A stretch of 64,000 bases of DNA. Origin: an uncultured Methanosarcinales archaeon. GTDB lineage: Archaea > Nanobdellota > Nanobdellia > Woesearchaeales > CAZYIM01. Positions 666 to 28,029 of the stretch are shown one piece after another; the stretch's first letter is position 1, and each line of letters opens with the position of its first letter. The stretch covers positions 32,001-96,000 of the forward strand of contig CAZYIM010000001.1 of NCBI GenBank assembly GCA_964647565.1, written 5' to 3'. The translations under genes and the position numbers were made by a program. The notes under the pieces are model-generated. The model saw nothing but the letters and a program-made list of their open reading frames with translations. It searched no databases and was not told where the DNA came from.

Positions 666-701
666 AGATTTATCCATTATGAAAAACAAAAAAACTTATA
701 T

Positions 702-720
702 ACTATAGTTGAACTATAGT
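702..720. promoter_or_regulatory. palindromic operator of the MazEF-like TA operon
   Basis: Perfect inverted repeat ACTATAGTT-G-AACTATAGT between a TATA-like box (CTTATATA) and the antitoxin ATG. Confidence 0.7.
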
Positions 721-725
721 CAGTT

Positions 726-950
726 ATGATCACAACAATCCAGCTAAGTGAAAAAATAAAGATGGCTCTGAGCAAGATGAAAAAAAACAACAGGGAAACA
801 TATGAAGAAGTCATAGTCCGTATGATAAAGACAATCAATGATTCTAAATCCGACAAGGAAAGCCTATTAAGAGAAGGCTATAAGGAAATGGCCAAAACCA
901 CTGAAAAGACTCATAAAGAATGGTCTTTGACTGATTCCGGGTGGGATTAA
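726..950 (+). CDS. antitoxin (RHH/MazE-like)
   Basis: TTIQLS...ETYEEVI RHH-like N-terminus; acidic tail ending EW...D; 1 nt upstream of the toxin gene. Confidence 0.8.
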   Translation: MITTIQLSEKIKMALSKMKKNNRETYEEVIVRMIKTINDSKSDKESLLREGYKEMAKTTEKTHKEWSLTDSGWD

Positions 951-951
951 G

Positions 952-1296
952 ATGAAGATTAAAAGAGGCCAGATTGTAATGGTTAAGCTCGATCCTGTTG
1001 TCGGCTCAGAACAGGGAAAGACCAGGCCTGCATTGATCATCCAGAATGATATTGGTAACGAGTTCAGTCCTGTAACGATCGTAGCACCAATAACATCCCG
1101 AATAATTGACAAACAATATCCCACTAACGTACAGATAAGCAAAAAAGAATCAGGCTTGGATAAGGAATCCACAATCCTGTTAAATCAGATCAGGACAATT
1201 GACAAGACCAGGATAATCAAACCATTACGGATTCTAAACCAGGACCTGCTGGCTGATGTTGATTCTGCAATAAAGATAAGTCTTGGCCTGGAATGA
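952..1296 (+). CDS. mazF: MazF/PemK family endoribonuclease toxin
   Basis: RGQIVMVKLDPVVGSEQGKTRPALIIQND, VAPITS and QIRTIDKTR motifs. Confidence 0.93.
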   Translation: MKIKRGQIVMVKLDPVVGSEQGKTRPALIIQNDIGNEFSPVTIVAPITSRIIDKQYPTNVQISKKESGLDKESTILLNQIRTIDKTRIIKPLRILNQDLLADVDSAIKISLGLE

Positions 1297-1401
1297 TTGT
1301 AACAGAAAAACACTTCTAAAACATAGAGATTTTACCACAAATATCTTTATAAAAAAAATTTAAATTTTGAAAACATAGAAAAAAACTAGAGGTGTTTTAT
1401 A

Positions 1402-2703
1402 GTGAATCCAGAGTTATCTGAACATTTTGCATCAAGAAAGCCGTCAGCCATCAGGCTGGCACAGATTGAGTTTGCGAAAAGAAACGACAAAACAATAGCA
1501 GTCAATACTGCAATAGGTAATGTATCATTGCCAATGCACCCTGCAATGATTGAGCGGATGAAGAATCTTGGAGGAGCGGGCAGCCCATTTGTCAAAGGCA
1601 TAGTCAAATACACATCAACAGTGGGCGTGGAAGAATCCAACAAGGCTTTCCTGAATATCATAGCCTCAAGCGGCTTTAAGACAGATAATCTATATTCACA
1701 GATCACTGACGGCGGAAGCCAGGCAATGGAACTAATAATTCTTGGCACATGCGGACCTGCAGGCAGCGATATTAAACCTTTGCTATTAATCGATGCATCA
1801 TACACCAACTATTCAGCTATGGCACAGCGGCTTGGCAGGAAAACAATCTCTGTGAGGAGGAACCTGCACGAACATGGCAAGTTCAGCCTGCCCGACATAA
1901 ATGAGATCGAGAGGGTTATTGAAGAGTTCAAGCCAGGAGCAATGATCGTCATCCCATATGATAATCCTACAGGTCATTTCTATGACCATAAGACGATGGT
2001 GGAACTTGGCCAGCTTTGTGTCAAGCACAACATGTGGATGATAAGCGATGAGGCATACAGAGAGCTGCACTATGTCGATCACGACACATCAAGCATCTGG
2101 GGACTTCTGGATGACGAAGTGCCAGGCATAGAAGGAAGAAGGATAAGCATTGAGACTGCATCCAAGGTCTGGAATGCTTGCGGACTCAGGATAGGTGCAT
2201 TGGTAACTGATAACGAAGATTATCATAAAGCGTCTGTTGCTGAAAACACCGCAAACCTTTGCTCCAATGCAATTGGCCAATATATCTTTGGTGCAATGGC
2301 ACAAGAAAGTCAAGAAGACTTAAAGACTTGGTATTCTAAACAAAGAAAATACTATCATAACATGATGTCAATGATGACCCAGGAGATTAAGCAAAGATTG
2401 CCGGGCGTCATCATTTCAAGTCCAGACGCATCCATATACTCTGTTGTGGATGTAAGGGATATAGCTAAACCAGGTTTCAATGCACTCGATTTTGTCTTGT
2501 TCTGTGCAAAAGAGGGCAAAGTGAATGTTGATGGCAAACAGACAACCCTGTTGGTCTCACCTATGGCAGGATTCTATAATGTAGAAGAAGGTCAAGAAAA
2601 TCCAGGGGATACCCAGATGAGAATAGCCTATGTAGAGACTCCTGAAAACATGGCTAAGGTGCCGTTATTGTTTACAGATCTTTTCAATCAGTACAATAAA
2701 TAA
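1402..2703 (+). CDS. PLP-dependent class I/II aminotransferase
   Basis: DNPTG, ISDEAY and TASKVWNACGLRIG (PLP lysine) motifs; C-terminal MRIAY. Confidence 0.9.
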   Translation: MNPELSEHFASRKPSAIRLAQIEFAKRNDKTIAVNTAIGNVSLPMHPAMIERMKNLGGAGSPFVKGIVKYTSTVGVEESNKAFLNIIASSGFKTDNLYSQITDGGSQAMELIILGTCGPAGSDIKPLLLIDASYTNYSAMAQRLGRKTISVRRNLHEHGKFSLPDINEIERVIEEFKPGAMIVIPYDNPTGHFYDHKTMVELGQLCVKHNMWMISDEAYRELHYVDHDTSSIWGLLDDEVPGIEGRRISIETASKVWNACGLRIGALVTDNEDYHKASVAENTANLCSNAIGQYIFGAMAQESQEDLKTWYSKQRKYYHNMMSMMTQEIKQRLPGVIISSPDASIYSVVDVRDIAKPGFNALDFVLFCAKEGKVNVDGKQTTLLVSPMAGFYNVEEGQENPGDTQMRIAYVETPENMAKVPLLFTDLFNQYNK

Positions 2704-2754
2704 ACCCATTGACAGAATCTACACTTGAGGTATGCGAGATAAAGAGGTGAATCC

Positions 2755-4239
2755 TCAAGATTTTTTCTTTTTCTTGGATTTTTCTTTTTCTTCTAGACCA
2801 AACCAGTTCTTGATTTTGACCTCAGTAACATCTGAACTATCACCACTATATATATAAGGCATGTCGCTGAGCTGATCCTTCGTGATATTTTCAAGGATTC
2901 CAGGATTCTCTGAAATTATTTTATGTACTACAGTTCTATGATCACGAAATTTATTCCCTGTCAGGATCACTGCAAGCTTGGCTTCTTTGGAAAGCTTTCT
3001 GATATCGATTCCCTCTGGTAAATAAGATCTCAGCTGTTCAGCGCCTTTTGCGCTGCGCCTTGCAGCATACATCACATTCTTGAAAAGCTGCTTGGCTTTG
3101 CCAAACTGAGATAGTTTAAGGATATTTTCTGCAATATAACTGACATCTTCAGGGCTTTCACGGCACGCAGCGTATCCAATCGCTGCTTTTGCCAGATGAG
3201 GCCCCATCTTGTCAATAGCCCTTAACTTATTAAGCACAGGTTCCTTGGTTATGCTATTTGCGAACTTAACAAGAGATGTACCGCCAAACTCAGTGCCAAG
3301 AGCAATATATACTTCTTCTGGAAGTTTTGCATCCTTTATCTTCTCAGCAGCATCCAATACATCTTCTGGCCTCTCAGAGATTTTAGTTCGGCCCAAACGT
3401 GCATAGCTTGAATCATTCATTTTCTGGATAACATGATCAACAAATGCAGCTCTTCCAGTCTCAAACAAAGTTTCAGCTCTTCTGACTGTATCTGCAAATG
3501 TATTATCATCCCAGGCATATCGATCTGCAGACTTGTTAAACTTAGGAAGCGAATATGTCCAATCTTTGTTTTTCATTGAATTATACTTATTAGTGAAGGA
3601 TCGGATTGCTTTTACCAGTCCCAGATCATTAACCTTGATTCCAGGATCAATAGCTGATAAATCATCTTTGTCTTTTAATTCCGCATAGAAACTAAATATC
3701 TCATCAACAATTGCTCGATAGTTTTCAGCATTATATCCCTCAATAGCTAACTGTAAAGCTGAAATTAATTCAGAACTTCCTGATGCTTTTTCAATCATCA
3801 TATCTGTTATTTCAGATTGTCCATATACTGCTTGTCGGATAGTCAGATCTATAGCAGGGTTGCTACCGAAATTATATTTATGAGGAAATTGGTTTTCAAC
3901 AGCAGATAGCTGTTCTTTAATATGAGGATTTTCCAGATTCTCTGTTGCAGTCATTGCAGCCTGATAATTATTCTCTACAATATCTGCCAACTCTCTTGCA
4001 ACAGTCGTCCTATGATCAAACTCAGGATATGACGCAATTGCAGCACCGATCCTTGCTCCGTTCTCTGTATAGACTGCCAAGGCTGCAGGAAGAATATCTT
4101 TATATTTTGGCGACATCGCCAAAAGTTCAACAGAATCAACAAACGAGTGATCTTCGTGTGTTAGCTTGAACGCATTCATAGCATCGCCATATGATATTGC
4201 CACCTGGGCCATCATGGCTTTTCCCGAGTTATTTTTCAT
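2755..4239 (-). CDS. hypothetical helical protein with a basic C-terminal tail
   Basis: 494-aa ORF; GGTGG RBS; no motif recognised. Confidence 0.7.
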   Translation of the reverse strand: MKNNSGKAMMAQVAISYGDAMNAFKLTHEDHSFVDSVELLAMSPKYKDILPAALAVYTENGARIGAAIASYPEFDHRTTVARELADIVENNYQAAMTATENLENPHIKEQLSAVENQFPHKYNFGSNPAIDLTIRQAVYGQSEITDMMIEKASGSSELISALQLAIEGYNAENYRAIVDEIFSFYAELKDKDDLSAIDPGIKVNDLGLVKAIRSFTNKYNSMKNKDWTYSLPKFNKSADRYAWDDNTFADTVRRAETLFETGRAAFVDHVIQKMNDSSYARLGRTKISERPEDVLDAAEKIKDAKLPEEVYIALGTEFGGTSLVKFANSITKEPVLNKLRAIDKMGPHLAKAAIGYAACRESPEDVSYIAENILKLSQFGKAKQLFKNVMYAARRSAKGAEQLRSYLPEGIDIRKLSKEAKLAVILTGNKFRDHRTVVHKIISENPGILENITKDQLSDMPYIYSGDSSDVTEVKIKNWFGLEEKEKSKKKKKS

Positions 4240-4375
4240 AAAACACCACCCTCACACATTGATAACCACTCAGAAATGGTTTAAAATTAATAAAACTTTC
4301 TGTTTGTGTGTGTGATTTTTCCCTGACTTGCTATTAAGAAAGTTACTCTCTTTGTATACCAAGCAAAATACCCAT

Positions 4376-5563
4376 CTAAATATTTTTTTTCAATCTTAAT
4401 GCTACTTCATCTATGAACTCCTCACTAAAATAAGATCGTTTAGGAACTGGCTTAGCTAGAGCTGCAAGATCTTTGGTCATTATCCCAGATTCAATTGTTT
4501 CGATGACTGCGGCTTCCAGAGTCTCAGCAAATCCAATCACCTTAGGTGTCTTATCCAGCTTTCCTCTCCTTCTTATAGCTCCTGTCCATGCAAAGATTGA
4601 GGCTACAGGATTGGTTGATGTTGGGTTTCCTTTCATATGCTCTCTGTAATGCCTAACAACTGTCCCGTGCGCAGCCTCATATTCATATTCACCTTCAGGA
4701 GAGACTAATACAGACGTCATAAGGCCTAAACTCCCAAAGCCTGCTGCGACCATGTCCGACATAATATCACCCTCATAGTTCATGCACGCCCAAATGATAC
4801 CTCCCTCATTCTTCATGATCTGTGCAACAGCATCATCGATCAGCAAATATCTATACCTGTTTTCAATACCAGCCAGTCTCATCTCTTCAAGGAATATTTC
4901 CTTGAATCTGGCATGATAATTCTTTGATATTGTGTCTTTTGTTGCAAACCAGACAGGATAATCATTATTCTCTGCATATTTGGCGCAAGACTTGGCAAAA
5001 CTTCTAATAGACGCCTCAGTATTAAACATTCCCTTGATTACACCTGGACCCGAGAAATCGTTTATCTTAAGAGAAATCCCCTTACCTTTTATTGGATTAT
5101 AAACAAGACAGGCATTACCTGCAGAAGGAACCCTAAAATCAACACTGGTGTAAATATCACCATAAGCATGCCGGGCTATGATAATTGGTTTGTTCCAACT
5201 CCTGACAAAAGGTGGTATATTTTTTACAAGGATAGGTTTTCTAAAGACTGTACCATCTAGAAACGATCTTATGGTGATGTTCGGGCTTGAGTATTGTCTC
5301 TTTAGACTGAACTCCTCCACTCTTTCTTCATTAGGAGTTATTGTTGCGCATTTGACACCCACTTTGTATTTCTTGATTGCTTTTGCAGCATCAGTTGTTA
5401 TATTATCATCGGTTTCGTCCCTTTTTTGAATTCCCAGATCAAAGTATTTAAGTTCAACATCAAGGAATGGGCAGATAAGCTTTTCCTTGATCATCTTCCA
5501 AAGCACTCTTGTCATTTCATCGCCATCCAGTTCAACAATCGGATTAGTTGCTTTTATCATCAT
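4376..5563 (-). CDS. icd: NADP-dependent isocitrate dehydrogenase (type II, eukaryote/bacterial-like)
   Basis: [50 protein letters not shown] and [10 protein letters not shown] motifs. Confidence 0.95.
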
Positions 5564-5681
5564 ATATTCACCTCTACATATTCCCCTCTAGATCGAAAAC
5601 CAAGTCTATTTCAGAACCTAGTATGATAATTTGAAAACCCTTTATAAACTTATTGGGGATGTACAAAATAATGTTCAGATT

Positions 5682-5713
5682 TTCCAGTCTTTCTCCATAG
5701 AGATATATCAAAT
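5682..5713 (+). repeat. copy 2 (degenerate) of the 32-bp intergenic motif
   Basis: TTCCAGTCTTTCTCCATAGAGATATATCAAAT; closest to the copy at 8581. Confidence 0.6.
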
Positions 5714-5726
5714 AGAAATTCTATTA

Positions 5727-6323
5727 TCACAAACCATTAAGTATGACATTCCGAAATTTGGCAGGCGGACTTCTTTCTAGCTTGAACACCTTTTCAGATG
5801 TATCAAAACCATGCTTAACCATCATATCCTGGAACTTTAAGAAAATCTTATAGGTAGCTTGGGCATCTGCCATGGCCCTATGGGCCTGGTCATTGACAAC
5901 ATTGAAATGCTCACACAAGAATGCGAGTCTCCTGCTAGGAAGGCTGGGCAATAGTCTGGTTGTCAGCTTACAGGTACATAACCGCTCGTTTGTAAATGAT
6001 CTATCCAAATGCTGTTCTGCATTGTGATTAAGAAAGCCATAGTCAAATGTTGCGTTATGGGCAATCATCACCCTGGAGCCCATGAACCTTAAGAATCTTG
6101 GCAGGATCTTGTTGATAGGTTTGGCCTTTGCAACCATGTCATCGTCTATGCCAGTCAATCTGGTTATGAAACTTGGGATGTGCACTCCTGGATTCACGAG
6201 TGATTGGAATTCATCCTTGACTTCACCATCTTTCACTTTCACTGCAGCCAGCTCTGTTATCTGATGACGTCTCTTGGATAAACCTGTGGTCTCTATATCA
6301 ACAACAACATAATCATCTATCAA
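5727..6323 (-). CDS. DEDDh 3'-5' exonuclease (DnaQ / Pol III epsilon-like)
   Basis: VVDIETTG, AHNATFD and HRAMADA motifs; TTG start at 6323 chosen from a GGTGA RBS and upstream TTTATATA. Confidence 0.9.
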   Translation of the reverse strand: MIDDYVVVDIETTGLSKRRHQITELAAVKVKDGEVKDEFQSLVNPGVHIPSFITRLTGIDDDMVAKAKPINKILPRFLRFMGSRVMIAHNATFDYGFLNHNAEQHLDRSFTNERLCTCKLTTRLLPSLPSRRLAFLCEHFNVVNDQAHRAMADAQATYKIFLKFQDMMVKHGFDTSEKVFKLERSPPAKFRNVILNGL

Positions 6324-6416
6324 CTTTTCACCTATATTTTTCGTAAGATAGACATATATAAAGTTTGTTGGACTGGAAAACAATGTTTGGCAAAGATGTC
6401 TTATTGATCCTAGAAT

Positions 6417-6448
6417 ATCCGGAGTTTCCTCAAAGAAATTTACTGAAA
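6417..6448 (+). repeat. copy 3 of the 32-bp intergenic motif
   Basis: ATCCGGAGTTTCCTCAAAGAAATTTACTGAAA; shares TTTCCTCAAAGAAATTTA with the copy at 7793. Confidence 0.7.
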
Positions 6449-6449
6449 G

Positions 6450-7649
6450 TTATTTATCTAATTCGCTCAGGTTTCCCTTATATCCTATAGATATTGTGCT
6501 TTGACTAGATAATGGAAAACCCGGTAGATAAACTGAGGTGTTATCTAAGAATAATGATTGGTAATTTACTGCTTTTGAAGTCCGAGCCCCAAGCTGTCCC
6601 ATCTTATTTGTAAATCGGGCCATGAATTCTGCAGCAGTATCGCATTCAAGATCCGATAGGGAGAATGAATATGTGTTTTTTTCATATTGCTCTTTACTTA
6701 ATCCGATCTGATTTCCTTTAGTTCCAACAAGCTGGATTCCACCCATACCAGGGATCTCCTCTGGCATGTTATCCAGATCAAACCATTGCGAACCATTAGT
6801 CAGGCATCCTGTAAAAACAGGATCTGGTACAGCTGCAAAACCACAAGCCCTGTATCCGAACTCTTTTGCCAACTGAGTATATGCTTCAAGGGGCGATTGC
6901 CCTTTAAGGAAAAACGAATAACCGATCCCAGTTGCTTGACCCCTAAGTGATCTTAAGTCCTCTGCTTTCATCCCCTTACTGAACTGTTTATGTTTTTCAA
7001 CTATAAAGCTTGTGTCAAACATCTTAAAATTATAAACATGCTCGTTTAACGAAGCCACTTTTGAAAACAAGTCAGCATGACCACTTCTTGCTGCTAAAGC
7101 ATAGTTTAATACTGATTTTCCCTGAAGATCGTGTTCATCTTTAAATATATGCTTGTCAATTACGATTAATCCTTTGCAAACAGGATCTGGAGAGAATTTT
7201 TTCCTTGCCCATTCTTTTAGGTTCCATAATTTCATTGCAGCTTCCCATTTAGTCATGGATAATAGCTCATATTTATCGGGAACTTTTTTTAATGGTGAAC
7301 CGTTTATTATAATATTTTCCTGAGGCGCTACTTGAGTTGAATTTTTTTCTACAAGGGTTTTTGTTTTTCTTGGTTGACCAAGTTTTTTCTGCTGATTATC
7401 CGGAAATATTTCAAAATAGATCCCAAAATTATCTGGCTCCGATAATGTCTCTAATTGATGTGCATATACATTCTGGTCTTTAAAATAGTCCAGAAGTTGT
7501 GATTTGGTCTCTTCGGGTGTTAGCTTAACACCAAAGTTAAACCTATTGAAGATTATATCTGCACCACCTTCGATGATCCCTTTACTGACATCATTAAAAT
7601 TCATATTATGGATTTTATCTGGTTCTACATCCAATTTTATATTTTCCAT
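6450..7649 (-). CDS. hypothetical protein
   Basis: About 400-aa ORF with no recognised motif; start uncertain (7649-7703). Confidence 0.7.
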   Translation of the reverse strand: MENIKLDVEPDKIHNMNFNDVSKGIIEGGADIIFNRFNFGVKLTPEETKSQLLDYFKDQNVYAHQLETLSEPDNFGIYFEIFPDNQQKKLGQPRKTKTLVEKNSTQVAPQENIIINGSPLKKVPDKYELLSMTKWEAAMKLWNLKEWARKKFSPDPVCKGLIVIDKHIFKDEHDLQGKSVLNYALAARSGHADLFSKVASLNEHVYNFKMFDTSFIVEKHKQFSKGMKAEDLRSLRGQATGIGYSFFLKGQSPLEAYTQLAKEFGYRACGFAAVPDPVFTGCLTNGSQWFDLDNMPEEIPGMGGIQLVGTKGNQIGLSKEQYEKNTYSFSLSDLECDTAAEFMARFTNKMGQLGARTSKAVNYQSLFLDNTSVYLPGFPLSSQSTISIGYKGNLSELDK

Positions 7650-7792
7650 TAATACAGGTAACATCTTATAAAGGATTAAAACCACATTTATAAATGTTGC
7701 CACTATACAGGAGTTTAAATTGCTTATGTTTCCGTTAATAATAAAAGAACAATAAAATCCACAAAGAATATATTCACTTTTTTCTAAAAATG

Positions 7793-7848
7793 CTCCGGTT
7801 TTTCCTCAAAGAAATTTATTAAGCAACCATTCTTAAAATCCAATTAGA
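7793..7848 (+). repeat. copy 4 of the motif; extended duplicate of the promoter region of the TctA-family gene
   Basis: CTCCGGTTTTTCCTCAAAGAAATTTATTAAGCAACCATTCTTAAAATCCAATTAGA compared with 8581-8633. Confidence 0.75.
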
Positions 7849-7863
7849 TATAGAAAAGTTTAT

Positions 7864-7884
7864 ATATAACATGATATGTTATAT
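7864..7884. promoter_or_regulatory. palindromic operator of the second TA operon
   Basis: ATATAACAT-GAT-ATGTTATAT overlapping the TATA-like box TTTATATA. Confidence 0.65.
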
Positions 7885-7902
7885 GATTTATGAGGTTATA
7901 CA

Positions 7903-8199
7903 TTGCGGAAGGTCATATTGAACCAGGATTTCCTGATCGAAGAGAATCTAAGAATTGTGAAAAGATTGTGGAAGGTAGACAAAACTTCAGATTTTCCTCA
8001 GGGCCAGGAGTTTTCAATACAGCTATTGCAACAGTTAGCAGGCTACTGGATTCAAATAGCCAGAATAGACAATCAGAAACACAAGAGAAAACCTGGTGTG
8101 CACATTCATAAATTAAACGGTTTTGTGATTTGGGAAGACATGACATTTAAAGAAGCTGTGAAAAGAATTTCGAATATAGCCCAACACACCAGAAGGTAG
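7903..8199 (+). CDS. DUF6516/TumE-like putative toxin
   Basis: LWKV...FPQG.EFSIQ...RIDN...HIH pattern; paired with a downstream HTH gene. Confidence 0.65.
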   Translation: MRKVILNQDFLIEENLRIVKRLWKVDKTSDFPQGQEFSIQLLQQLAGYWIQIARIDNQKHKRKPGVHIHKLNGFVIWEDMTFKEAVKRISNIAQHTRR

Positions 8200-8203
8200 A
8201 AAA

Positions 8204-8566
8204 ATGAGAATTGAGATCGTTAATGAAATTTTTAAGAGAATGAAGACAGATGATGGCTATGTTGAAGCTGCGATTAATGATAAAATAGAGATTGATCCAA
8301 AAAAGGCAGAGAAGACCTTGATCATGACCCCTGCGGTTTTTGCAAAAGTATTCTCACCTCAAAGAATGCACCTGATCCTTAAGGTAAGTAAGAACAACAT
8401 CCAGAACATCTATCAGATCGCAAAAGATCTAAATCGGAAATACGCAGCAGTGCACAGGGATATCTCATATCTGAAAAGCATAGGTATTCTCAAACTCAGG
8501 AAGAAGAACAAAAAGGTTATCCCTTACATTGCAGAAAATATCATGATGCCAAAGATACCCGCCTAA
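8204..8566 (+). CDS. winged-HTH putative antitoxin (HVO_A0114-like)
   Basis: KVFSPQRMHLI...IYQIAKDLNRKYAAVHRDISYLKSIGIL...VIP. Confidence 0.75.
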   Translation: MRIEIVNEIFKRMKTDDGYVEAAINDKIEIDPKKAEKTLIMTPAVFAKVFSPQRMHLILKVSKNNIQNIYQIAKDLNRKYAAVHRDISYLKSIGILKLRKKNKKVIPYIAENIMMPKIPA

Positions 8567-8580
8567 GATATCCAAGATAT

Positions 8581-8632
8581 TTCCGGTTTTTCTCCAGAGA
8601 GATTTATTAAGCAATCCTTCCAAAATCAATAG
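8581..8632 (+). promoter_or_regulatory. copy 5 of the motif; contains the probable BRE/TATA of the TctA-family gene
   Basis: TTCCGGTTTTTCTCCAGAGAGATTTATTAAGC; TATA lies about 25-30 nt before ATG 8633. Confidence 0.7.
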
Positions 8633-9835
8633 ATGTTTTGGCAGATTTTGCTCGCAATAACCCTTGGTGTGACTTCAGGGATTCTTACAGGCCTGATTCC
8701 AGGCATCCATGTAAACCTGGTCTCTTTGATAGCTTTATCTCTTTCACCATTGCTTCTGCAGTTTGTCTCTCCAGTCACTATTGCTGTCTTTATCATCTGC
8801 CTGGCAGTGACTCATTCGTTTCTTGATTCGATTCCTTCAATATATTTAGGTGCTCCAGATGAAGCCCAGGCATTGTCTGTGTTACCAGGTCATCGGATGC
8901 TATTAGAAGGCAGGGGCTATGACGCACTCAAACTCACTCTTGTTGGAAGTTTCTTTTCTTTATTGCTTTGTTTGGTACTTGTGCCCCTGTTTCTCCCGCT
9001 TGTTGAACTCGTCTATCCGATCATCAAGAATTTCATCGGCTATATATTGATAGCTGTCATGGCTTACCTGATCTTAAAGGACAACAAGAGAAAATATAAC
9101 TTCCTGGTTTTTGCATTGAGCGGCTGCCTCGGCTTTGTTGTTCTGAACATCCCTAATGTTGATAATGTTCTCTTCCCTCTGCTATCCGGCTTGTTTGGTT
9201 TTTCAGTCTTGATAACCAGCATCATGCAAAACTCCAGGATCCCAAAGCAAGAAATCTCCAAGAAAACAGATATTGAAAGAAAGACCATTGCCAAGGCAGT
9301 CGCAGGCGCAACCACTGTCGGCTTCATCGCTTCTTTCCTTCCTGGTTTTGGCTCCAGCCAGGCAGCTATCATAGCAACACAAGTTCTAAGAAACATCGGC
9401 AACAATGGCTTTTTAATTCTAGTCGGAGGCATTAATACTGTCAACTTCACCTTGAGCTTGATCACATTATATATAATAGACAAAGCAAGGAATGGAGCTG
9501 TTGTGGCTATTTCACAAATTGTTGATAAAACCACACTGACAGAACTAAGCATTTACTTTTCTGGCGCACTTATCGCAGGCAGTATTGCGGTCTTTTTAGC
9601 CCTATCCATTGCCAAGATATTCTCAAAAATGATCTCAAAGGTCAACTACAAAGTCCTTGTTCTCTCAATCATAGGATTCACAATAATATTGGTATTTTAT
9701 TTCAGCGGAGGGCTTGGCCTTGCCATTTTAATTACAGCCACAGCCCTTGGCTTCTTTGCAGGCTTGTTAGGCGTTGGCAAGAACCACTGTCTAGGTTGTC
9801 TGATTGTGCCCGTTATCTGTTATTTTGTATTATAG
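8633..9835 (+). CDS. tripartite tricarboxylate transporter TctA family (archaeal DUF112-type) membrane protein
   Basis: GLIPGIHVN and SIYLGAPD...VLPGHRMLLEGRG motifs; many TM helices. Confidence 0.85.
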   Translation: MFWQILLAITLGVTSGILTGLIPGIHVNLVSLIALSLSPLLLQFVSPVTIAVFIICLAVTHSFLDSIPSIYLGAPDEAQALSVLPGHRMLLEGRGYDALKLTLVGSFFSLLLCLVLVPLFLPLVELVYPIIKNFIGYILIAVMAYLILKDNKRKYNFLVFALSGCLGFVVLNIPNVDNVLFPLLSGLFGFSVLITSIMQNSRIPKQEISKKTDIERKTIAKAVAGATTVGFIASFLPGFGSSQAAIIATQVLRNIGNNGFLILVGGINTVNFTLSLITLYIIDKARNGAVVAISQIVDKTTLTELSIYFSGALIAGSIAVFLALSIAKIFSKMISKVNYKVLVLSIIGFTIILVFYFSGGLGLAILITATALGFFAGLLGVGKNHCLGCLIVPVICYFVL

Positions 9836-9850
9836 AAAGCTTTAAATATG

Positions 9851-9906
9851 TGTGGTGACTAACTTAAGAAAAATAGAGAAAATTTTTTATTTGTGGTGAC
9901 TAACTT
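9851..9906 (+). repeat. 15-bp direct repeat TGTGGTGACTAACTT x2 upstream of / overlapping the fic start
   Basis: Exact copies at 9851-9865 and 9892-9906. Confidence 0.8.
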
Positions 9907-10783
9907 GGTCTTTGTAAGAAAGAAAAATATCAAGGGAAGGGAGTATTATTATCTTGTTAAATCTACAAGGCAGGGTAAAAAATGGAAGAAGATAGAGAGA
10001 TATGTGGGTATTAATCCTCCTTCTGAAAAAGACATAAACTGTTTCAATCAAGAAATTGATAGTGTTAAGAAATTCCTTGACTCAAAAAAAGAGACTTTGC
10101 TAAATATCGAGAGAAAATATCAGGCATGGTTAAAATCTGCAAAAACAGATCAGCTGCATAATTATGAAGATGAGATAATCATAAGGTTCACGTATGATAC
10201 CAGCCGGATTGAGGGATTAAGCTTGACTTACAAGGATACCCGTCTCCTGCTCCAACAAGGCATAACCCCTTCCCAAAAGCCAATAAGAGACATAAAAGAG
10301 ACTGAAAACCACAAGAAAGCATTCTTGTTCATAAAAGAATGCCTAGGAAAAACAATCACTAAAGATTTCATATTTGAACTGCACAGGCTGCTAAAAGAGG
10401 GAGTGTCAGAAGATGCAGGGAGTTTCAGGAACGCTAATGTAATTGTGGGCGATTTGATTCCAATAAAACCTTCTTTAATAGAGCAAGAGATCAACAATCT
10501 TCTTGTCTGGCTGCAAAAGAACAAGAACTTGCATCCCCTAGAAAAGGCAGCTATATTTCACAGCATCTTTGAGAGGATACATCCTTTTTTTGATGGCAAC
10601 GGAAGAGTGGGTCGATTGCTGTTGAACTTCATCATGCTAAAGAACAACTTTCCGATAATCATTGTTCAGAACAAAAACAAGAGAAGATACTACACTGCAT
10701 TAAGAAGGGCTGATCAAGGCAACTATCTTTTCATGGTTAAGTATCTTTTTTCTGAATTAATAAGGCAGCCTTATTTAAATTAG
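9893..10783 (+). CDS. Fic family protein (class II) with an N-terminal basic beta-strand domain
   Basis: Canonical HPFFDGNGRVGR motif; inhibitory TSRIEG motif; start may be TTG 9905. Confidence 0.92.
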   Translation: MVTNLVFVRKKNIKGREYYYLVKSTRQGKKWKKIERYVGINPPSEKDINCFNQEIDSVKKFLDSKKETLLNIERKYQAWLKSAKTDQLHNYEDEIIIRFTYDTSRIEGLSLTYKDTRLLLQQGITPSQKPIRDIKETENHKKAFLFIKECLGKTITKDFIFELHRLLKEGVSEDAGSFRNANVIVGDLIPIKPSLIEQEINNLLVWLQKNKNLHPLEKAAIFHSIFERIHPFFDGNGRVGRLLLNFIMLKNNFPIIIVQNKNKRRYYTALRRADQGNYLFMVKYLFSELIRQPYLN

Positions 10784-10868
10784 AATCAAACCACCTAAAA
10801 AAATAAGCGGAATTTTAATGTTTTTAAAACACAAAATATTATAAGCACTTTCCAAACTCTAAAAGTTC

Positions 10869-12953
10869 ATGAGCAGCGAACTAGACTACATCGGAATATT
10901 AAAAGCATTAAGAGACATACCTTTTGGTGTTGGAAAAAAACTGTTAATAGAATATCTTCAAGGAAAAGACAGCCATGAATCCATAGTTAGAAACAAGCTG
11001 GACAAACTAGACTCTTTTGGCAGCCTGGCATATGATACTGATGAACTTGAAAAGTTGATAAATAATCTGATCTTAAATAGTCTGATTAAGCAAGTGTCAA
11101 TCAGGGGCAATCGTTTCTGGAAAGTGATGGAACTCAGCCGAGAAGGGAGCAAGGAAATAGATAATCCTCAACTATATAAAAAAAAGATATCCTATAACAT
11201 AAAAACAAAGACAACAAAAATCACTGATCAGGATAAAAAGCGGTTCACAGCATTTGGCGTATTCCTTGATAAGTACAACGACGAACAAAAGAAAGCTATA
11301 ATCTGCAACAACAATCACATCCTATGCATTGCAGGCGCAGGATCCGGCAAGACAACAGTTTTGGCAAAGAAAGTTGAGTTCCTGATAAACTATCAATCAA
11401 TCGATCCAAAAAAGATACTAGCGATCACTTTCACAAGAAAAGCCAAACAGGAAATGCAGCGGCGTCTAGAAAACTTTAGTGACGTATCGATTGAGACTTT
11501 CAATTCATTCTGTGAAAAAGTCTTAAAGACGTACAATGATATGGTATATGATCGCGAGGTTCGCATGATAAGTTATCGGGATAAGATACAGATGACCCGC
11601 AAGGCTTTAACCAAGCTTGGCACAAGCATGAGTTCTGCAATCAACCAGTATTTTTCAGTCGGCCAAAGAAGAGGCAAGACTCAGGAACAGTTGGCGAACA
11701 TTTTCATGAATGACTGCTTTTTTATACGTGATTATCTAAAATCAAAAGGGAAAAACTCAGCAGAATTTGATACGAGCGATCCTGCAGCACAACTGGTTTT
11801 TGGCGTAGGCAACTATATAGATGCACACATGAAAAGAAACGGCCAGAGGGATTTCACTGACCAACTCATCGATACAATCAGGTTATTTAAAGAAAAGAAG
11901 GAATTAATATCAGATTATGATTATGTATTAATCGACGAATACCAGGATATCAACCCTTCACAGATAAGCCTAATCGAATTAATAAATCCTGCAGCGTTAT
12001 TCTGCGTCGGCGATCCGAGACAGTCCATTTTTGGGTGGCGGGGATCAAGCATAAAATATATCCTTGATTTTGAGACCAAGTATCCAGGATCAGAGACAAT
12101 AACATTAACCAAGAACTATCGTTCAAACAAGCACATAGTTGAGATGATAAATAAATCAATTACCGAGATGGGCCTCGCAGATCTTGAATCGACCATAGAT
12201 ACAGAAAAAGACATGCACCTTATGACTTTTGATTCAGAAGCTGGCGAATTTGAATTTGTTACCCAGAAGATCATAGCTTCAACATTACCAAGAGAAGAAA
12301 TATTTGTTCTTGCAAGAACCAACAGGCAGCTGGCAGAATTATCAGCCAAACTAAAGACTGTTGGCATAAAACATGTCCTAAAGAGTGATGAGATAAACAG
12401 GAGCATCGAGGCCAAAACAGGAGAAGTGACATTAGCTACGATCCATGCCATAAAAGGCCTTGAAGCAGAGATGGTCTTTGTAATCGGCTGCACATCTCTA
12501 AATTTTCCCTGCAGAGGAAGTGAGCATCCAGTGATTGACATGGTAAAAGTGGATGAATATGATAAAGAGGAGGAAGAAAAAAGACTTTTTTATGTCGCTA
12601 TGAGTCGGGCGAAAAATCATCTATTCCTGACGTATTCAGGAAAAAAGCACACTCATTTTATCACCAAAGACATGCTTGAGTTGATAAGAAAATCCAAGAT
12701 TGATATTGAGCCTATGCAAAGTTCAAAAACAGCAGCCAGGGGAGATCTTAACGACAGGTTAAGGGCCTGGCGAAAGCGTGTTAGCTCAGACATGAATGTT
12801 GCAGCATTCATGATACTGCATGACAGGACACTAATAGATCTTGCACAAAACCCGCCCACAACTAAACAAGAGCTGGAGAATATCCATGGAATGGGTCCTG
12901 CCAAGATTCTGAAGTACGGCGATGAACTGATTGATGTGATAAATAATAAGTGA
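10869..12953 (+). CDS. UvrD/Rep-family SF1 helicase with an N-terminal RQC-like domain and a C-terminal HRDC domain
   Basis: AGAGSGKT, ITFTRKA, IDEYQD, VGDPRQSIFGWRG, NYRS, TIHAIKGLE and EEKRLFYVAMSRA motifs; HRDC LRAWR...HDRTL...IHGMGPAKILKYG. Confidence 0.92.
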   Translation: MSSELDYIGILKALRDIPFGVGKKLLIEYLQGKDSHESIVRNKLDKLDSFGSLAYDTDELEKLINNLILNSLIKQVSIRGNRFWKVMELSREGSKEIDNPQLYKKKISYNIKTKTTKITDQDKKRFTAFGVFLDKYNDEQKKAIICNNNHILCIAGAGSGKTTVLAKKVEFLINYQSIDPKKILAITFTRKAKQEMQRRLENFSDVSIETFNSFCEKVLKTYNDMVYDREVRMISYRDKIQMTRKALTKLGTSMSSAINQYFSVGQRRGKTQEQLANIFMNDCFFIRDYLKSKGKNSAEFDTSDPAAQLVFGVGNYIDAHMKRNGQRDFTDQLIDTIRLFKEKKELISDYDYVLIDEYQDINPSQISLIELINPAALFCVGDPRQSIFGWRGSSIKYILDFETKYPGSETITLTKNYRSNKHIVEMINKSITEMGLADLESTIDTEKDMHLMTFDSEAGEFEFVTQKIIASTLPREEIFVLARTNRQLAELSAKLKTVGIKHVLKSDEINRSIEAKTGEVTLATIHAIKGLEAEMVFVIGCTSLNFPCRGSEHPVIDMVKVDEYDKEEEEKRLFYVAMSRAKNHLFLTYSGKKHTHFITKDMLELIRKSKIDIEPMQSSKTAARGDLNDRLRAWRKRVSSDMNVAAFMILHDRTLIDLAQNPPTTKQELENIHGMGPAKILKYGDELIDVINNK

Positions 12954-17995: not shown

Positions 17996-18709
17996 ATGGA
18001 CATAAAAAAGAGTTATCTCATCAACATACTGGTAATCTTCCTTGTTTTTGCGTCAGGCCTTATAAGATTCTGGTTTAAGGCGAGAGATGTAGAATTGAGC
18101 ATTGGTTCTAACATCGCACCCTTATTTGGCGGAGGTATTTTTGTAATCATTTTGGTTACTGCGTTCGGATTCTCATATTACAGGAGTAAGAAGGGAAACA
18201 AGATCTTTTCTGATTTTGCAATGAGATATGGTCTTAAGCACATTCCGCATTCCACCTTTGGCACAAGAGGTTCGATCTCCGGAAGATACAGGGGATTTTC
18301 AGTGGTCATGAGCAATATCACCAAAGGGTATGGAAAAAGCCGAAAGCAACTATTCTGTATTTCCTTTGGTAATCTCGGATTGCCTACCTATAAGGAGTTT
18401 TTAGCGGTTCCAAAATGGCTGAAGAGCTATTTCACTACATCATCCGCATCTAAGGAGGTCACTAGGGATAATCAGCAAATTGATAAGAAATACAGTCTTA
18501 CTGCTGATGACCCATCATTATTGAAGAAGATTCTTGATGACGTCACCATGATAAGACTCATTGAAAACAAATGGCTGTTGGAACTTAAGACCTGCAGCAT
18601 CAATGTGGTAAAAGAGGGTTATATCAAGAATGTCTCAGAGATGGAAGAGATCTTCAGGTTTGGCTTGAAGCTGGCTGAAAGATTGAGGGATAGTGTGAAT
18701 TATAGGTGA
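17996..18709 (+). CDS. hypothetical membrane protein (2 TM plus a soluble domain)
   Basis: Two N-terminal hydrophobic helices. Confidence 0.7.
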   Translation: MDIKKSYLINILVIFLVFASGLIRFWFKARDVELSIGSNIAPLFGGGIFVIILVTAFGFSYYRSKKGNKIFSDFAMRYGLKHIPHSTFGTRGSISGRYRGFSVVMSNITKGYGKSRKQLFCISFGNLGLPTYKEFLAVPKWLKSYFTTSSASKEVTRDNQQIDKKYSLTADDPSLLKKILDDVTMIRLIENKWLLELKTCSINVVKEGYIKNVSEMEEIFRFGLKLAERLRDSVNYR

Positions 18710-23442: not shown

Positions 23443-23985
23443 TTACTCTTCATCCTTGACATAGTGATGGTCAAAGTTCTCGTCAGCAATAGGTGCAAAA
23501 GGATCCATATGCAACAAGTTTAGGGCTGCCTTGGCGCCTGTTTTCAATTGGTGTGCATGACCCGATGCAACCTGCTTTACGCCTTGTTTAAGTTTGTTGG
23601 CGACCTTGTCCAGAACAAGAGTGCATTCTCCTTCAAGATTGATAAAGGTCTCGACCACATTGTTATGGAAATGATGGGAAGTTACACAATTGGGCGGGAT
23701 TACCTGCACCAAAATCCCCTTCTTCACATGCATGCCAGGATATCTTGCTTGTGATCCTGCAGAGCACTGGAATTTCTCCTCAGAGAGTTCCCTATAATAT
23801 AACCTATGGTCATGTCCATTGAATTTAGGAAGAAGGATGGATTTCATGTGCTTGTCAAGAAAGGTCTTTTCCTTGGTCCGAACAGAAATAAAGTCTACGT
23901 TATGCTGCATATCAAGAAATTCATCCTCTGTCAAGTCCCTAGTTATAAGTGTGAACCTGTCCTTGGGAACCAATCTGACCCTCAT
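23443..23985 (-). CDS. cupin-domain protein
   Basis: SHHFHNNVVETFINLEG...GHAHQL cupin motifs in the C-terminal half. Confidence 0.75.
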   Translation of the reverse strand: MRVRLVPKDRFTLITRDLTEDEFLDMQHNVDFISVRTKEKTFLDKHMKSILLPKFNGHDHRLYYRELSEEKFQCSAGSQARYPGMHVKKGILVQVIPPNCVTSHHFHNNVVETFINLEGECTLVLDKVANKLKQGVKQVASGHAHQLKTGAKAALNLLHMDPFAPIADENFDHHYVKDEE

Positions 23986-24039
23986 GAAAGCTTGAAAAAA
24001 TCACAGTTTTTATAAATCTTTCCCATATCTCTTATATTC

Positions 24040-24798
24040 ATGGAAACCGACAAACTTGAATTTGACTTTGTAATTAACCTTCATGAACTGCTTGACAATA
24101 AGAATGGTGACGCTGTCAAGGAAGACATGCGAAGGGTTGTTGAGACAATACGAGAAAGGGAGCATGGAAACCACATAACCATCAAGTGTATTCTTGAAGT
24201 ATGTTACCTTACTGATGCTGAGATAGAGCTTCTATGCAAATGGTGCTTAGAATTGGGCATAGACTTTGTGAAGACATCAACTGGCTTTGGAACTGGAGAT
24301 ATAGATATGCACAAGATCCGCGTAATGAAAGAATCTGTTGGCGATGAAGCTGAGATCAAAGCTGCTGGCGGAATAGACACCTATGAAGAATTCATGGAAG
24401 CAATTGAACTCGGCGCACACAGGATCGGAGCCAGCAAAGGTGTGAAGCTGGTTGAGATGCATAAAGAACATAAGCACATGGACATGTCTGACAAGCAGTT
24501 TGCTTCATATATAGACCACACTTTCTTATATCCTGACGGTGAAGCAAATGATATCCAACAAATTGCAAAAGAAGTTGATGAATATGGATTTGCAGCATGC
24601 GTATGCAGACCAGAATTTGTAAAGGATGCGCTTGTTGTTCTTAAGGACTCAGATGCCAAGATCGGGTCATGCATCGGCTTTTCTGGACTTGTTGCCAAGG
24701 ACAAGGATGGCAAAACAGGCTTTATGCGATATAACATCCCAACAGAGCAGAAGATAGCAGAGATCGAGAAGAGCTTCGAGGCCTTGAAAGGATTTTAG
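24040..24798 (+). CDS. deoC: deoxyribose-phosphate aldolase, circularly permuted
   Basis: EFDFVIN, KCILE, FVKTSTGF, IKAAGGI and RIGAS come before IDHT...GFAACVC.P...CIGF, which is normally the N-terminal part. Confidence 0.85.
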   Translation: METDKLEFDFVINLHELLDNKNGDAVKEDMRRVVETIREREHGNHITIKCILEVCYLTDAEIELLCKWCLELGIDFVKTSTGFGTGDIDMHKIRVMKESVGDEAEIKAAGGIDTYEEFMEAIELGAHRIGASKGVKLVEMHKEHKHMDMSDKQFASYIDHTFLYPDGEANDIQQIAKEVDEYGFAACVCRPEFVKDALVVLKDSDAKIGSCIGFSGLVAKDKDGKTGFMRYNIPTEQKIAEIEKSFEALKGF

Positions 24799-25046
24799 AT
24801 TTATTTTTTCTTTAGTTCTTCAAAACCAATCGTATCATTGGGAAATAGGTGAAGAACATAGTTGCCCTCTGATAGTATCCCTTGCATTGTCCTGTATCTT
24901 GTTAAGGCTGCATTTTACGGAAAAGTTATGGCGACAAATAATTATTTATCATCTCCTAGTAGTAAATTTACGAAATATTTAAATACAAAAAGCTATTTCT
25001 TAGACGATATTTTAAAATAACTATAGATTCATTTCAGGCGAGTAAA

Positions 25047-26321
25047 TTGGAAAAGATCATAGATGACCCAAGAAGCGGTAAGATCAAAAAGAGAAAGAAG
25101 ACCCAGATCACAGATATAAACTCAGCACCTTCAGTTACGCGGTCAAAAAAAGGATTTTCAGAAGGAGGGCAACTTCTAAACTATATTGAACATATTGAAA
25201 AAAGCCTAGATAATCTGATATTTGAATATGGTTCGAATTCAATCCAGTTCCACATGCATGCCCAGATGTTGAATGTTTTCCAAGCCCAAAAAACCTTGTT
25301 CCAACAGTATGGAACCTCTAATTCCAAAGATTATATGCCAATTATGAGATCTGGTTTACCATCTGTAGACGCATTGAACTCAAATCTTGAAAAAATATGT
25401 CGGTTAACAAGAAAAAATCCGGATTTCAAGATCATTGCCGCCAGGATGAAAAAAGGCCTCACTGGAAAAAACAAAGGCAAGAGCAAGCACATCTACACTC
25501 TCGTATCAGAAAATGATTTTAATCTTGAATTTGAAAACTTCAAGGGTTTCGAACTGCTTTCTCAAAAAGGATTTCAACTAAGCCAGACAGAAAAAGGAGA
25601 ACTAGTTCTTGATTTCAAAGAAGATATCTTTGTAGATGCTCCTGATGAGATCTCGAAGAAATTCCCTGCATTGATACGTGAAGGAAAAGTAACATACAAG
25701 ATGGCATGGAAGAAACTAATCGATGAATTCGAAGTCTCTTATTTCTTGCCTAATACATCATTAGTGCTCCAGGAAAACACTATTGAATCTGAAGAGAAAA
25801 ATTTCGATGATATTTGCAGGACATACAAATTCAGGTCAAGTCATTATAATATGTATATACCTCCTTTCTCTTATTGGAGTCCAAAGATGATAAATTATGC
25901 TAAATTCTTGGCTTCTGGCCAAAGGGCAAGGATGGCAAGCACAACAGATATTCTCAATAAATTGTCAGAGACATATGAGCAAAAAGTGGTTTTAAAAGAT
26001 GTTAAAGAAGAAGCAATGAATGATATTCTTAAATTTTCTGACGTGCCCTTTGAAAATGCACCTGAGACCGCTCCGAGTGCCAAAGAACTAAAAGAACTGA
26101 ATATTTCCACTAAATTTGATTTAATGCTGGAATCTGGCAGTATAAACATCGGAACTCTGGATTTCACATTACCCGGAGTTTACCAAGTATCTGCTTATAT
26201 AGGAACTGTTAGTAGGTTTCTAAAAGGCCATATGAGTCTAAAAATCTTCGGCGGTAGTGTTGGAAATGAAACCCAATATAAAACTCTTCAAAAATCACTA
26301 AAAACAGTAAAAATGAGATGA
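25047..26321 (+). CDS. hypothetical protein
   Basis: 424-aa ORF with no recognised motif. Confidence 0.7.
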   Translation: MEKIIDDPRSGKIKKRKKTQITDINSAPSVTRSKKGFSEGGQLLNYIEHIEKSLDNLIFEYGSNSIQFHMHAQMLNVFQAQKTLFQQYGTSNSKDYMPIMRSGLPSVDALNSNLEKICRLTRKNPDFKIIAARMKKGLTGKNKGKSKHIYTLVSENDFNLEFENFKGFELLSQKGFQLSQTEKGELVLDFKEDIFVDAPDEISKKFPALIREGKVTYKMAWKKLIDEFEVSYFLPNTSLVLQENTIESEEKNFDDICRTYKFRSSHYNMYIPPFSYWSPKMINYAKFLASGQRARMASTTDILNKLSETYEQKVVLKDVKEEAMNDILKFSDVPFENAPETAPSAKELKELNISTKFDLMLESGSINIGTLDFTLPGVYQVSAYIGTVSRFLKGHMSLKIFGGSVGNETQYKTLQKSLKTVKMR

Positions 26322-27072: not shown

Positions 27073-28029
27073 ATGACACTATTTCCAGATTATTATGAAC
27101 CATATCGAAAAGCTGGCTTTTCATTCGAAGAGTACCAGGAGATTGAACAAAAATCCATGTGGGAAGCCCTGAAAGTAAAGAGGCAGATGGATAAGGAGAA
27201 CGAAGAAAGAAGAGTAAAGCTGATTGCCAGCTACACACCGCAGAAGCTCTTCAAGGAGTTCCTCTCCTTCCAAAAGAAGTTCGAGGAGAATGACCGAAGG
27301 AATTTCTGGTATAAGAGCGATGGTGATAAAAAAGCACCAAAGAGATTCAAATTGCGAGGGCCTAGAAAGGTAGTCCGAAAAACCCCTAAAGAGAAGGTAT
27401 TCAATGGAAAATTGCTTATGCAGAAGATCCGAGACGGGATTGATACAGTTGTAAGTCCTGTTGAATCCACTATCAGCAGCGGTGTTGATAAGATCAAAAG
27501 GGACAACCTTTCAAAGCAGATGAATGCCTATCTTGCTGACAAATTCGACATCCATCCATACAGCTGGGACGAGCTTCCTGATAAGGCAAAAGAGGATTTT
27601 GAACTGAATGGATCATCAGGGTACAATCCCTTAGTCATACCATTGCACAAGGGAGAGGACTATGTGCATATGCAGTTCATGGCCAATCTTGACTATCATG
27701 AATGGCACTTCTTTGATTTCAAGGGTGTTGATCATATGCTTTGTTTCCTTGATAGTAAGGATATAGTAAGAAGGACTCATGTGCTCATGGATATTGACCA
27801 TGCAATGGATGATGATTATCTCTTAGATCTAGGTTCTAAGATACAGTCTTATTTTCTGGAGAACAGGAAAAAAGAGCTAAGGGATGCTGTGCTGATTCCG
27901 ATCAAAGCACATCATATCGAAATCCAGGAAGCTTTTAGTCTCAAACCTGAAGAAAAGCGAAAAAGAAGAGCAAAGGGAAAGATAGTGACAGTAGATTACA
28001 GGTTTGTTGATCCTAAGACTGTAAAGTAA
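27073..28029 (+). CDS. hypothetical protein
   Basis: 318-aa ORF. Confidence 0.65.
   Translation: MTLFPDYYEPYRKAGFSFEEYQEIEQKSMWEALKVKRQMDKENEERRVKLIASYTPQKLFKEFLSFQKKFEENDRRNFWYKSDGDKKAPKRFKLRGPRKVVRKTPKEKVFNGKLLMQKIRDGIDTVVSPVESTISSGVDKIKRDNLSKQMNAYLADKFDIHPYSWDELPDKAKEDFELNGSSGYNPLVIPLHKGEDYVHMQFMANLDYHEWHFFDFKGVDHMLCFLDSKDIVRRTHVLMDIDHAMDDDYLLDLGSKIQSYFLENRKKELRDAVLIPIKAHHIEIQEAFSLKPEEKRKRRAKGKIVTVDYRFVDPKTVK

Follow-up and report, generated by a model that had tools for sequence, protein, structure and literature searches.

Can a deoxyribose-phosphate aldolase (DERA) be encoded with its two halves in swapped order and still be a genuine enzyme gene? The question is raised by an open reading frame (ORF) at positions 24040-24798 (plus strand, as for all features below) of a 64,000-nucleotide stretch of archaeal DNA (contig CAZYIM010000001.1, positions 32,001 to 96,000; the window, meaning this stretch at its full length), which encodes 252 amino acids (aa) and a TAG stop codon in one frame. 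A sequence-only reading of the window had claimed that this ORF begins at EFDFVIN and carries the DERA motifs in swapped order, and the residue positions agree with it. Taking the evidence together, the explanation that we consider best, and hold with high confidence, is that the gene encodes a real, conserved and naturally circularly permuted class I (Schiff-base) aldolase of the DeoC/DERA family.

The departure from the normal arrangement can be read from the motifs. Canonical DERAs follow the order IDHT, CV.P, GFPLG, D.V.N, K.I.E, KTSTG, KA.GG and RIG.S, whereas the window protein follows D.V.N, K.I.E, KTSTG, KA.GG, RIG.S, IDHT, CV.P and GF. Its first part contains EFDFVIN (residues 7-13), KCILE (49-53), FVKTSTGF with K78, IKAAGGI with K107, and RIGAS (128-132), and its second part contains YIDHT (157-161), followed by CVCRP, CIGF (211-214) and TEQKIAE. 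Residues 1-139 (24040-24456) correspond to the canonical C-terminal part, comprising beta4-beta8 and the last helix (DeoC profile positions 86-210; approximately residues 82-224 of DERA chains in the PDB), and hold D9 (24064-24066), K49 (24184-24186), the Schiff-base lysine K78 (24271-24273), K107 (24358-24360) and the phosphate-site residues G110/G111 and S132. A His/Met-rich linker, MHKEHKHMDMSDKQ, leads from the old C-terminus to the old N-terminus (residues 140-153, 24457-24498). Residues 154-214 (24499-24681) then form the canonical N-terminal part with a short helix, beta1 (IDHT), beta2 (CVCRP) and beta3 (CIGF), which correspond to profile positions 2-63 and to approximately residues 6-88 of PDB DERAs. 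They are followed by an insertion typical of the subfamily (residues 215-234, 24682-24741), which replaces the PLG..T loop after beta3 and is common to unpermuted siblings, and by helix alpha3 (residues 235-252, 24742-24795; helix 235-250 in the predicted model, aligned up to residue 121 of a sibling), which is now C-terminal and places the new termini in the alpha3/beta4 loop.

Profile and pairwise comparisons have returned the same arrangement. Scored as a whole, the protein reaches 146.1 bits against the deoC equivalog of NCBIfam (TIGR00126, cut-off 117.3) in two stretches, the best of which places residues 7-138 on profile positions 86-210 and the second residues 150-215 on positions 2-63; the Pfam DeoC model is matched with 32.3 against a cut-off of 23.8. 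A genome-wide profile search has likewise located profile 86-210 upstream of profile 2-63 in a single open frame, and each half scored alone on the genomic DNA, i.e., piecewise, stays below the TIGR00126 cut-off. The PDB DERA chains 3ngj, 5dbu and 8qps have been matched by phmmer in two swapped stretches with E values down to 1.9e-33, far beyond chance. On P0384, an unpermuted sibling domain from Omnitrophota, residues 153-250 of the query align with 21-121 and residues 6-138 with 127-260; both halves are complementary on this sibling, and therefore the cut lies in one loop, with five sibling residues unaccounted for. The separate alignment of the two halves to DeoC, which the sequence-only reading had proposed as a check, has thus given the swapped order without overlap.

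The chain runs from beta4 to beta8 and the last helix, continues through a linker of 20-27 residues derived from the former tails and then through beta1-beta3, and ends after helix alpha3, so that its eight strands can still close into a normal (beta/alpha)8 barrel. AlphaFold2, run on a ten-row alignment, has produced a model with a mean predicted local distance difference test (pLDDT) of 94.2 and a predicted template modeling score (pTM) of 0.92, containing eight strands (residues 6-11, 47-51, 76-78, 105-109, 126-131, 158-162, 186-189 and 207-212) and a final helix (235-250). The linker is the internal block of lowest pLDDT (82), and the insertion has been modeled without regular secondary structure (block pLDDT 87-92). 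Against DERA chains, Foldseek has aligned 129-145 columns at a root-mean-square deviation (rmsd) of 1.3-2.8 Å, which is about half of the model because the aligner is sequential; VIA-align is sequential as well, and neither method can fit the two halves simultaneously to a single DERA chain. With VIA-align, model residues 4-250 match whole triosephosphate isomerase (TIM) barrels at Z scores of 14.0-14.6, e.g., 6wvs (Z 14.6, 171 residues aligned), 7mcd (Z 14.6, 173) and 4j9j (Z 14.4, 187), and model residues 1-146 match approximately residues 82-224 of DERA at Z 13.2-13.6, an rmsd of 2.0-2.3 Å and 32-43% identity. The predicted model is a closed eight-stranded (beta/alpha)8 barrel. The halves fall on complementary, non-overlapping parts of DERA and the predicted barrel is complete, both as expected from the earlier claim of a complete TIM-barrel permutant, with which a structure prediction had been proposed. 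The new termini in the alpha3/beta4 loop presumably lie on the barrel face away from the active site, as we assume from general TIM-barrel geometry.

The borders of the gene have also been inspected. A TATA-like box, TTTATAAA, had been claimed upstream of the ORF and lies at 24009-24016, centered approximately 27 nt 5' of the ATG as read from the sequence, where it would fit an archaeal promoter for a leaderless or nearly leaderless mRNA. The gene for the TATA-binding protein (TBP) has been found in the host genome, which is therefore archaeal. An in-frame TAA (24013-24015) stands eight codons 5' of the ATG of the ORF, and therefore no N-terminal half is concealed upstream. No DERA leftovers flanking the gene have been found in the flanking sequence or by a deoC profile search of the whole genome, and the same type of search has detected no second DeoC-like stretch in the 2.68-Mb host genome (86.9% complete); each barrel element thus occurs once and in a single frame, without leftover halves, as the sequence-only reading had stated.

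The host assembly is a metagenome-assembled genome (MAG) in 86 contigs, and support for the junction has been sought in Logan contigs (not raw reads) aligned to 23600-25200, one run of which may be the source of the assembly. Two contigs from two studies (X1 record 4, 24163-25200, and X2 record 7, 24182-25200) span both the junction at 24460-24500 and the stop codon with 0 differences, so that the junction which the sequence-only reading had marked for checking is crossed by independent contigs. The start codon is covered by a further contig of the first run (X1 record 3, 23934-24084), and X4 record 14 (24058-24208) connects this start-side contig with the junction contigs; runs X3 and X4 cover the ORF in parts only. 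Two loose ends in X3 (record 10, 36 bases at 24261-24296, 2 differences) have not been counted, as they belong to a different sequence that has a short conserved stretch in common. As these are contigs rather than reads and one run may be shared with the assembly, the occurrence of the same order in diverged homologues is the stronger argument.

Such homologues have been found by several searches. An exhaustive search of 1.84 billion cluster representatives has yielded five proteins of 232-257 aa (P0121, P0122, P0123, P0126 and P0127) that match the query end to end in a single stretch at 35-42% identity, whereas canonical DERAs in the same search are matched in two stretches each. A profile search of a word-indexed collection has added two more (P0270 and P0271; 96-99% of the query covered), and a single-protein word-index search has given no full-length match among the best 120. 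Among 401 genomes of the same taxonomic order, the host included, 23 contain a match, and in three of these, the host, G331 and G307 (each from a different family), it is full length and in one piece. The other genomes of this order are small, measuring 0.6-2.1 Mb. The other 20 show the canonical order or a C-terminal half alone above threshold; script-checked ORFs in 15 of them (all but G021, G085, G095, G243 and G311) contain both blocks in canonical order. A phylum-level sample of 401 genomes has returned the same three permuted genes only, together with one match to the C-terminal half alone. Both in G331 (99% complete) and in G307 (92% complete), the deoC profile matches the permuted gene alone and in swapped order. 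The pooled set of proteins with both blocks (n = 483, including some duplicates that have been removed before tree building) consists of 472 canonical and 11 permuted sequences, 10 of them distinct. The search for homologues with the same motif order, suggested together with the original observation, has therefore ended with ten proteins including that of the window. The permuted order is rare (3 of 401 sampled genomes of the taxonomic order and seven metagenomic proteins), and the permutation is inherited within a small, old family and is not a one-off.

Several further candidates have been discarded. A genome-contig scan with the pattern D[FY]VKTSTG[YF] has given at least 600 matches, mostly canonical DERAs, of which 80 loci have been kept; of five loci with wide query ranges, L010, L034, L073 and, as examined by script, L012 are canonical, and the fifth, L015, is an unpermuted sibling of the permuted family (see below). 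P0124 (355 aa, matched in three stretches) has been considered as an intermediate and rejected, being a canonical DERA in which approximately 120 residues are repeated exactly, probably through an error of assembly or a very recent internal duplication. A metagenome-contig scan with the closest subgroup (A4) has provided two loci and no new full-length member. One of them (L108:574-663; Ga0233425_10018050) contains a 29-codon fragment with 71% identity to the first 28 residues of the permuted family, followed by a stop; just downstream of it lies a ribonucleotide-reductase-like gene of 677 aa, and the fragment probably represents the remains of a permuted DERA gene that has decayed. The other (L107:878-6675; VAOW01011460.1) holds a canonical DERA with a 45-residue N-terminal extension, which has been matched via a chance N-terminal motif and closes a bacterial-microcompartment-type cluster with shell proteins, an aldehyde dehydrogenase and an RpiB-like gene.

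Alignment of the ten permuted proteins extends over the full length, with 32-41% identity to the query and 32 invariant columns, and the set has been compared with 466 canonical DERAs. D9, N13, K49, E53, K78, T79, S80, T81 and G82, as well as K107, G110, G111, G130, S132, D159, H160, G213 and F214, are kept in both groups (94-100% of the canonical sequences). Among them, D9, K49, K78 and K107 are invariant in all ten permuted proteins and present in 98-100% of the canonical ones, and align to the corresponding motifs of PDB DERAs; catalytic and phosphate-site residues taken together are found in 10 of 10 permuted members and in 95-100% of canonical DERAs. Two positions mark the subfamily, namely R190, a position occupied by N in 83% and by R in 2% of canonical DERAs, and F10, where M accounts for 68% and F for 5% of them. 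The third mark is the loop after beta3, for which a replacement of GFPLG by an insertion had been claimed: GF is retained, and PLG..T is substituted by 15-25 residues with invariant L217, K220 and Y231, the columns of which are gaps in 91-92% of canonical DERAs. This insertion is not caused by the permutation and predates it, because unpermuted siblings carry the same 15-25 residues. RIG.S and IDHT are 20-27 residues apart in each of the ten members; for comparison, the N- and C-terminal tails of stand-alone canonical DERAs (n = 282) add up to a median of 20 residues (range 12-53). Linker sequences are unrelated among members, and the His/Met-rich composition pointed out earlier for MHKEHKHMDMSDKQ is confirmed and peculiar to the window protein. 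This linker is notably rich in His and Met (HKEHKH), for which metal binding would be pure speculation.

Where did the swapped order come from? The closest relatives with the normal order are found as domains within very large bacterial proteins. L015 (JBFZAG010000152.1, from a Candidatus Omnitrophota MAG and bacterial by record title) contains a canonical-order DERA domain at about 6001-6720 with IRP, GFKNL...KRYDISIEEK and EIDFVINLY, within a frame of 4240 codons that is open across the whole 12.7-kb locus (1-12720). P0172 (763 aa) and P0241 (800 aa) hold unpermuted, insertion-bearing DERA domains of the same kind. These three siblings share with the permuted family the insertion (GF..L...RYDI..EK), the R in the beta2 motif and EIDFVIN, and are unlike it in their canonical order and their location inside multidomain proteins with DUF218, kinase-like or ARMT1-like domains. 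The L015 frame also encodes a DUF218 domain and a cytidylate-kinase-like P-loop domain, apparently as one giant multidomain protein. The DERA domains of P0172 and P0241 follow signal-peptide-like N-termini, that of P0241 is fused to an ARMT1-like damage-control phosphatase domain, and 'GLEE' linkers recur, features which suggest exported or surface multidomain enzymes.

A maximum-likelihood tree has been calculated from 69 rows and 200 columns, the two blocks having been aligned separately and then concatenated; the columns of the insertion and of alpha3, filled in too few rows, have been left out, and a near-identical canonical group has been thinned to five rows, with 37 rows dropped before the careful search. 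The ten permuted and three unpermuted insertion-bearing sequences form one clade with a support of 97/90. When the permuted ten were constrained to one clade, the log-likelihood rose by 9.74 relative to the free tree, with a p-AU of 0.707; the best-scoring tree is therefore one with a single permutation event, which fits one origin without proving it. A search for longer relatives has also uncovered P0386 (500 aa, from one metagenomic contig), a natural tandem DERA-DERA fusion, the middle of which (C-terminal half of copy 1, approximately 30 linker residues and N-terminal half of copy 2) is collinear with residues 1-214 of the query. Its arrangement is that of the intermediate predicted by a duplication model, but it is untrimmed and lacks both the subfamily insertion and an equivalent of R190, which makes it an analogue and not an ancestor. 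Copy 1 has a degenerate Schiff-base motif (KVQASS for KTSTG) and copy 2 an intact one, and P0386 may be a pseudo-dimer in which one of the active sites is dead. The agreement of the linker length with the summed old tails and the existence of a tandem fusion indicate that the permutation may have arisen by duplication, fusion and trimming. A DERA that already possessed the beta3-alpha3 insertion would have been duplicated in tandem and fused, and the fused tandem would have been trimmed at both ends, once, in an ancestor of these archaeal genes.

Regarding the reaction, we assume the roles known from the mechanism of E. coli DERA, in which K78 would form the Schiff base with the substrate carbonyl, D9 and K107 would constitute the proton relay with K49 nearby, and G110, G111 and S132 would hold the phosphate. 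The most likely reaction is the reversible cleavage of 2-deoxyribose 5-phosphate (dR5P) to glyceraldehyde 3-phosphate and acetaldehyde. It is favored because the catalytic and phosphate sites are intact, no second DeoC homologue has been found in any of the three genomes, and phosphorylase genes are present, the host genome having four nucleoside phosphorylase genes of the PNP family (PNP_UDP_1).

A number of observations weigh against the explanation preferred here, either as a whole or in one of its parts. The window protein is the most divergent family member, with an end branch of 1.31, and has D87 (24298-24300) in the GTGG stretch after the Schiff-base lysine, where nine of ten members and 97% of canonical DERAs have G; D29, L137 and V179 also depart from otherwise conserved residues. 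No run on record as RNA has been listed among those containing the ORF stretch, and the structure is a prediction built on a ten-row alignment. As for the function, no nucleoside-catabolism genes lie within approximately 7 kb, and the neighbors are unrelated (an MFS transporter, a HAD hydrolase, a cupin, a nucleotidyltransferase, ThiI and NadA); in the 86.9%-complete genome, neither the thymidine/AMP-phosphorylase family (Glycos_transf_3) nor RuBisCO has given a match, and PGM_PMM_I has stayed below threshold (20.7 versus 22.5 bits). The sites of R190 (N in canonical DERA), of F10 (M in canonical DERA) and of the insertion replacing PLG..T are likely to be near the active site, and the substrate may differ from dR5P. 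As for the origin, the free tree nests the unpermuted trio among permuted rows with weak support (91/81 and 80/45), and P0386 stems from another DERA branch and shows only that such fusions occur. The divergence of the window protein would be expected if the ORF were a non-functional relic, i.e., the middle of a decayed tandem duplication that is open by chance; its branch is the longest in the family, it has departures such as D87 for G, and the 29-codon remnant of a related 5' end on a metagenome contig demonstrates that decay occurs in this family. Yet start, end and every catalytic residue have been retained by ten members at 32-41% identity, the two halves complement each other exactly, no leftover fragments accompany the gene, it is the only DeoC homologue detected in the three genomes, and the fold is predicted with confidence, which renders a relic highly improbable. 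Smaller still, and close to nil, is the probability that the order is an assembly or binning artefact, in the form of a chimeric join inside a normal deoC gene. A MAG in 86 contigs, with the region covered by contigs and not by raw reads, would leave room for such a join, but separately built contigs from two studies reproduce 24163-25200 without difference and others cover the start, the linker is in frame, and two further genomes and seven metagenomic proteins, with 32-41% identity, show this order too. The artefact has thereby already been contradicted, and the divergence of the permuted records rules out one shared pipeline error.

The two remaining alternatives accept the permutation and concern its function and its history. 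The gene could encode a real, folded and permuted class I aldolase of an insertion-bearing subfamily that acts, as a whole, on another substrate or in another reaction than DERA, e.g., on some other aldehyde or sugar that is phosphorylated or acidic, in which case the label DERA would be wrong. The residues R190, F10, L217, K220 and Y231, invariant in the subfamily, would suit this proposal, as would the lack of deo-type neighbors in the window and the unusual DERA context of the unpermuted siblings beside DUF218, cytidylate-kinase-like and ARMT1-like phosphatase domains. It has to be set against the retention of all DERA catalytic and phosphate-site residues, a whole-protein score above the deoC equivalog cut-off (146.1 versus 117.3 bits), the nucleoside phosphorylases of the genome, and the presence of the gene as sole DeoC homologue found in three genomes, as expected for a housekeeping role; we regard it as possible, albeit doubtful. 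The history could likewise have followed another route than duplication, fusion and trimming, such as fission and re-fusion in opposite order, or excision from a multidomain protein with repeated DERA modules. That the closest unpermuted relatives sit in very large multidomain proteins, and that a tandem fusion of this very subfamily has not been found among 65 long matches, speaks for such a route, whereas the old tails add up to the length of the linker, the helix preceding IDHT appears in the model to be kept in the linker, the cut site is a single loop with only five sibling residues missing, and a natural tandem DERA-DERA fusion is collinear across its junction. Moreover, no split half-genes have been seen in the 401 genomes of the taxonomic order, where two-part matches lie in one open frame and in canonical order. 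Another route is consequently judged unlikely, and duplication, fusion and trimming remains the history that fits best.

The search for longer relatives and the surroundings of the gene have provided some additional observations. Many entries of the long-match list (460-861 aa) are canonical DERAs fused to RpiB/LacAB (PF02502), flavoprotein (PF02441) or PfkB kinase (PF00294) domains, and others join a canonical DERA to phosphoglucomutase/phosphomannomutase (PF02878 and others); the latter type looks like a mutase-aldolase that would combine two consecutive steps of deoxyribose catabolism. Close to the gene in the window, the ORFs at 25047-26321, 27073-28029 and 17996-18709 (424, 318 and 237 aa, respectively) are without a Pfam match at E <= 0.001.

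Although proteins are known to evolve by circular permutation, clear natural cases within one enzyme family are uncommon for TIM barrels. The present case, of moderate interest for protein evolution and biocatalysis, combines a permutant, living unpermuted siblings and a natural tandem-fusion analogue; it is recent, is readable from sequence and makes it possible to test how new termini in the alpha3/beta4 loop are accommodated by a (beta/alpha)8 barrel and whether folding and catalysis are affected. DERA is a widely used biocatalyst; with a natural permutant whose beta3-alpha3 loop is remodeled, new termini become available for fusions, and the substrate range may differ as well. Annotation pipelines that meet half-length matches, or piecewise hidden Markov model (HMM) scores below threshold, could miss such a gene or call it partial. 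A tentative and rather speculative extension is that the subfamily with invariant Arg190, Lys220 and Tyr231 around the beta2/beta3 loops may represent a new class I aldolase specificity, the permutation releasing a compact stand-alone enzyme in host-dependent archaea. If true, the subfamily would be an unexplored catalyst of carbon-carbon bond formation and would provide a natural TIM-barrel permutation documented step by step by the unpermuted domain, the tandem fusion and the permutant.

No description of a natural permuted DERA has been found by searches of open-access full text and bioRxiv, subscription journals being outside this coverage, and the term matches inspected there concerned unrelated contexts; this result agrees with the statement of the sequence-only reading that no described case was known to it. 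Among characterized systems, canonical DERA (DeoC, EC 4.1.2.4; TIGR00126, PF01791; PDB 3ngj, 5dbu, 8qps and 3r12) is the closest. The window protein shares with it 36-43% identity over the larger half, the same set of Asp/Lys/Lys/Lys, the KTSTG Schiff-base motif, the phosphate-site glycines and serine, an HMM score above the equivalog cut-off and, by prediction, the same (beta/alpha)8 fold. It differs in the order of beta4-beta8 followed by beta1-beta3, in the joining of the old termini by a linker of 20-27 residues, in the insertion with invariant L, K and Y for PLG..T, and in R for N in CVNP. Transaldolase B is the textbook precedent among aldolases. A circular permutation of a Schiff-base aldolase TIM barrel has been proposed for it, based on a catalytic Lys located on a different strand (Jia et al., 1996, Structure 4:715, as summarized in PMC3962226). 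The permutation of transaldolase B is ancient, lies between families and has been deduced on structural grounds alone. The DERA permutation, in contrast, lies within one family, with both halves homologous in sequence, with living unpermuted siblings and with a datable cut site.

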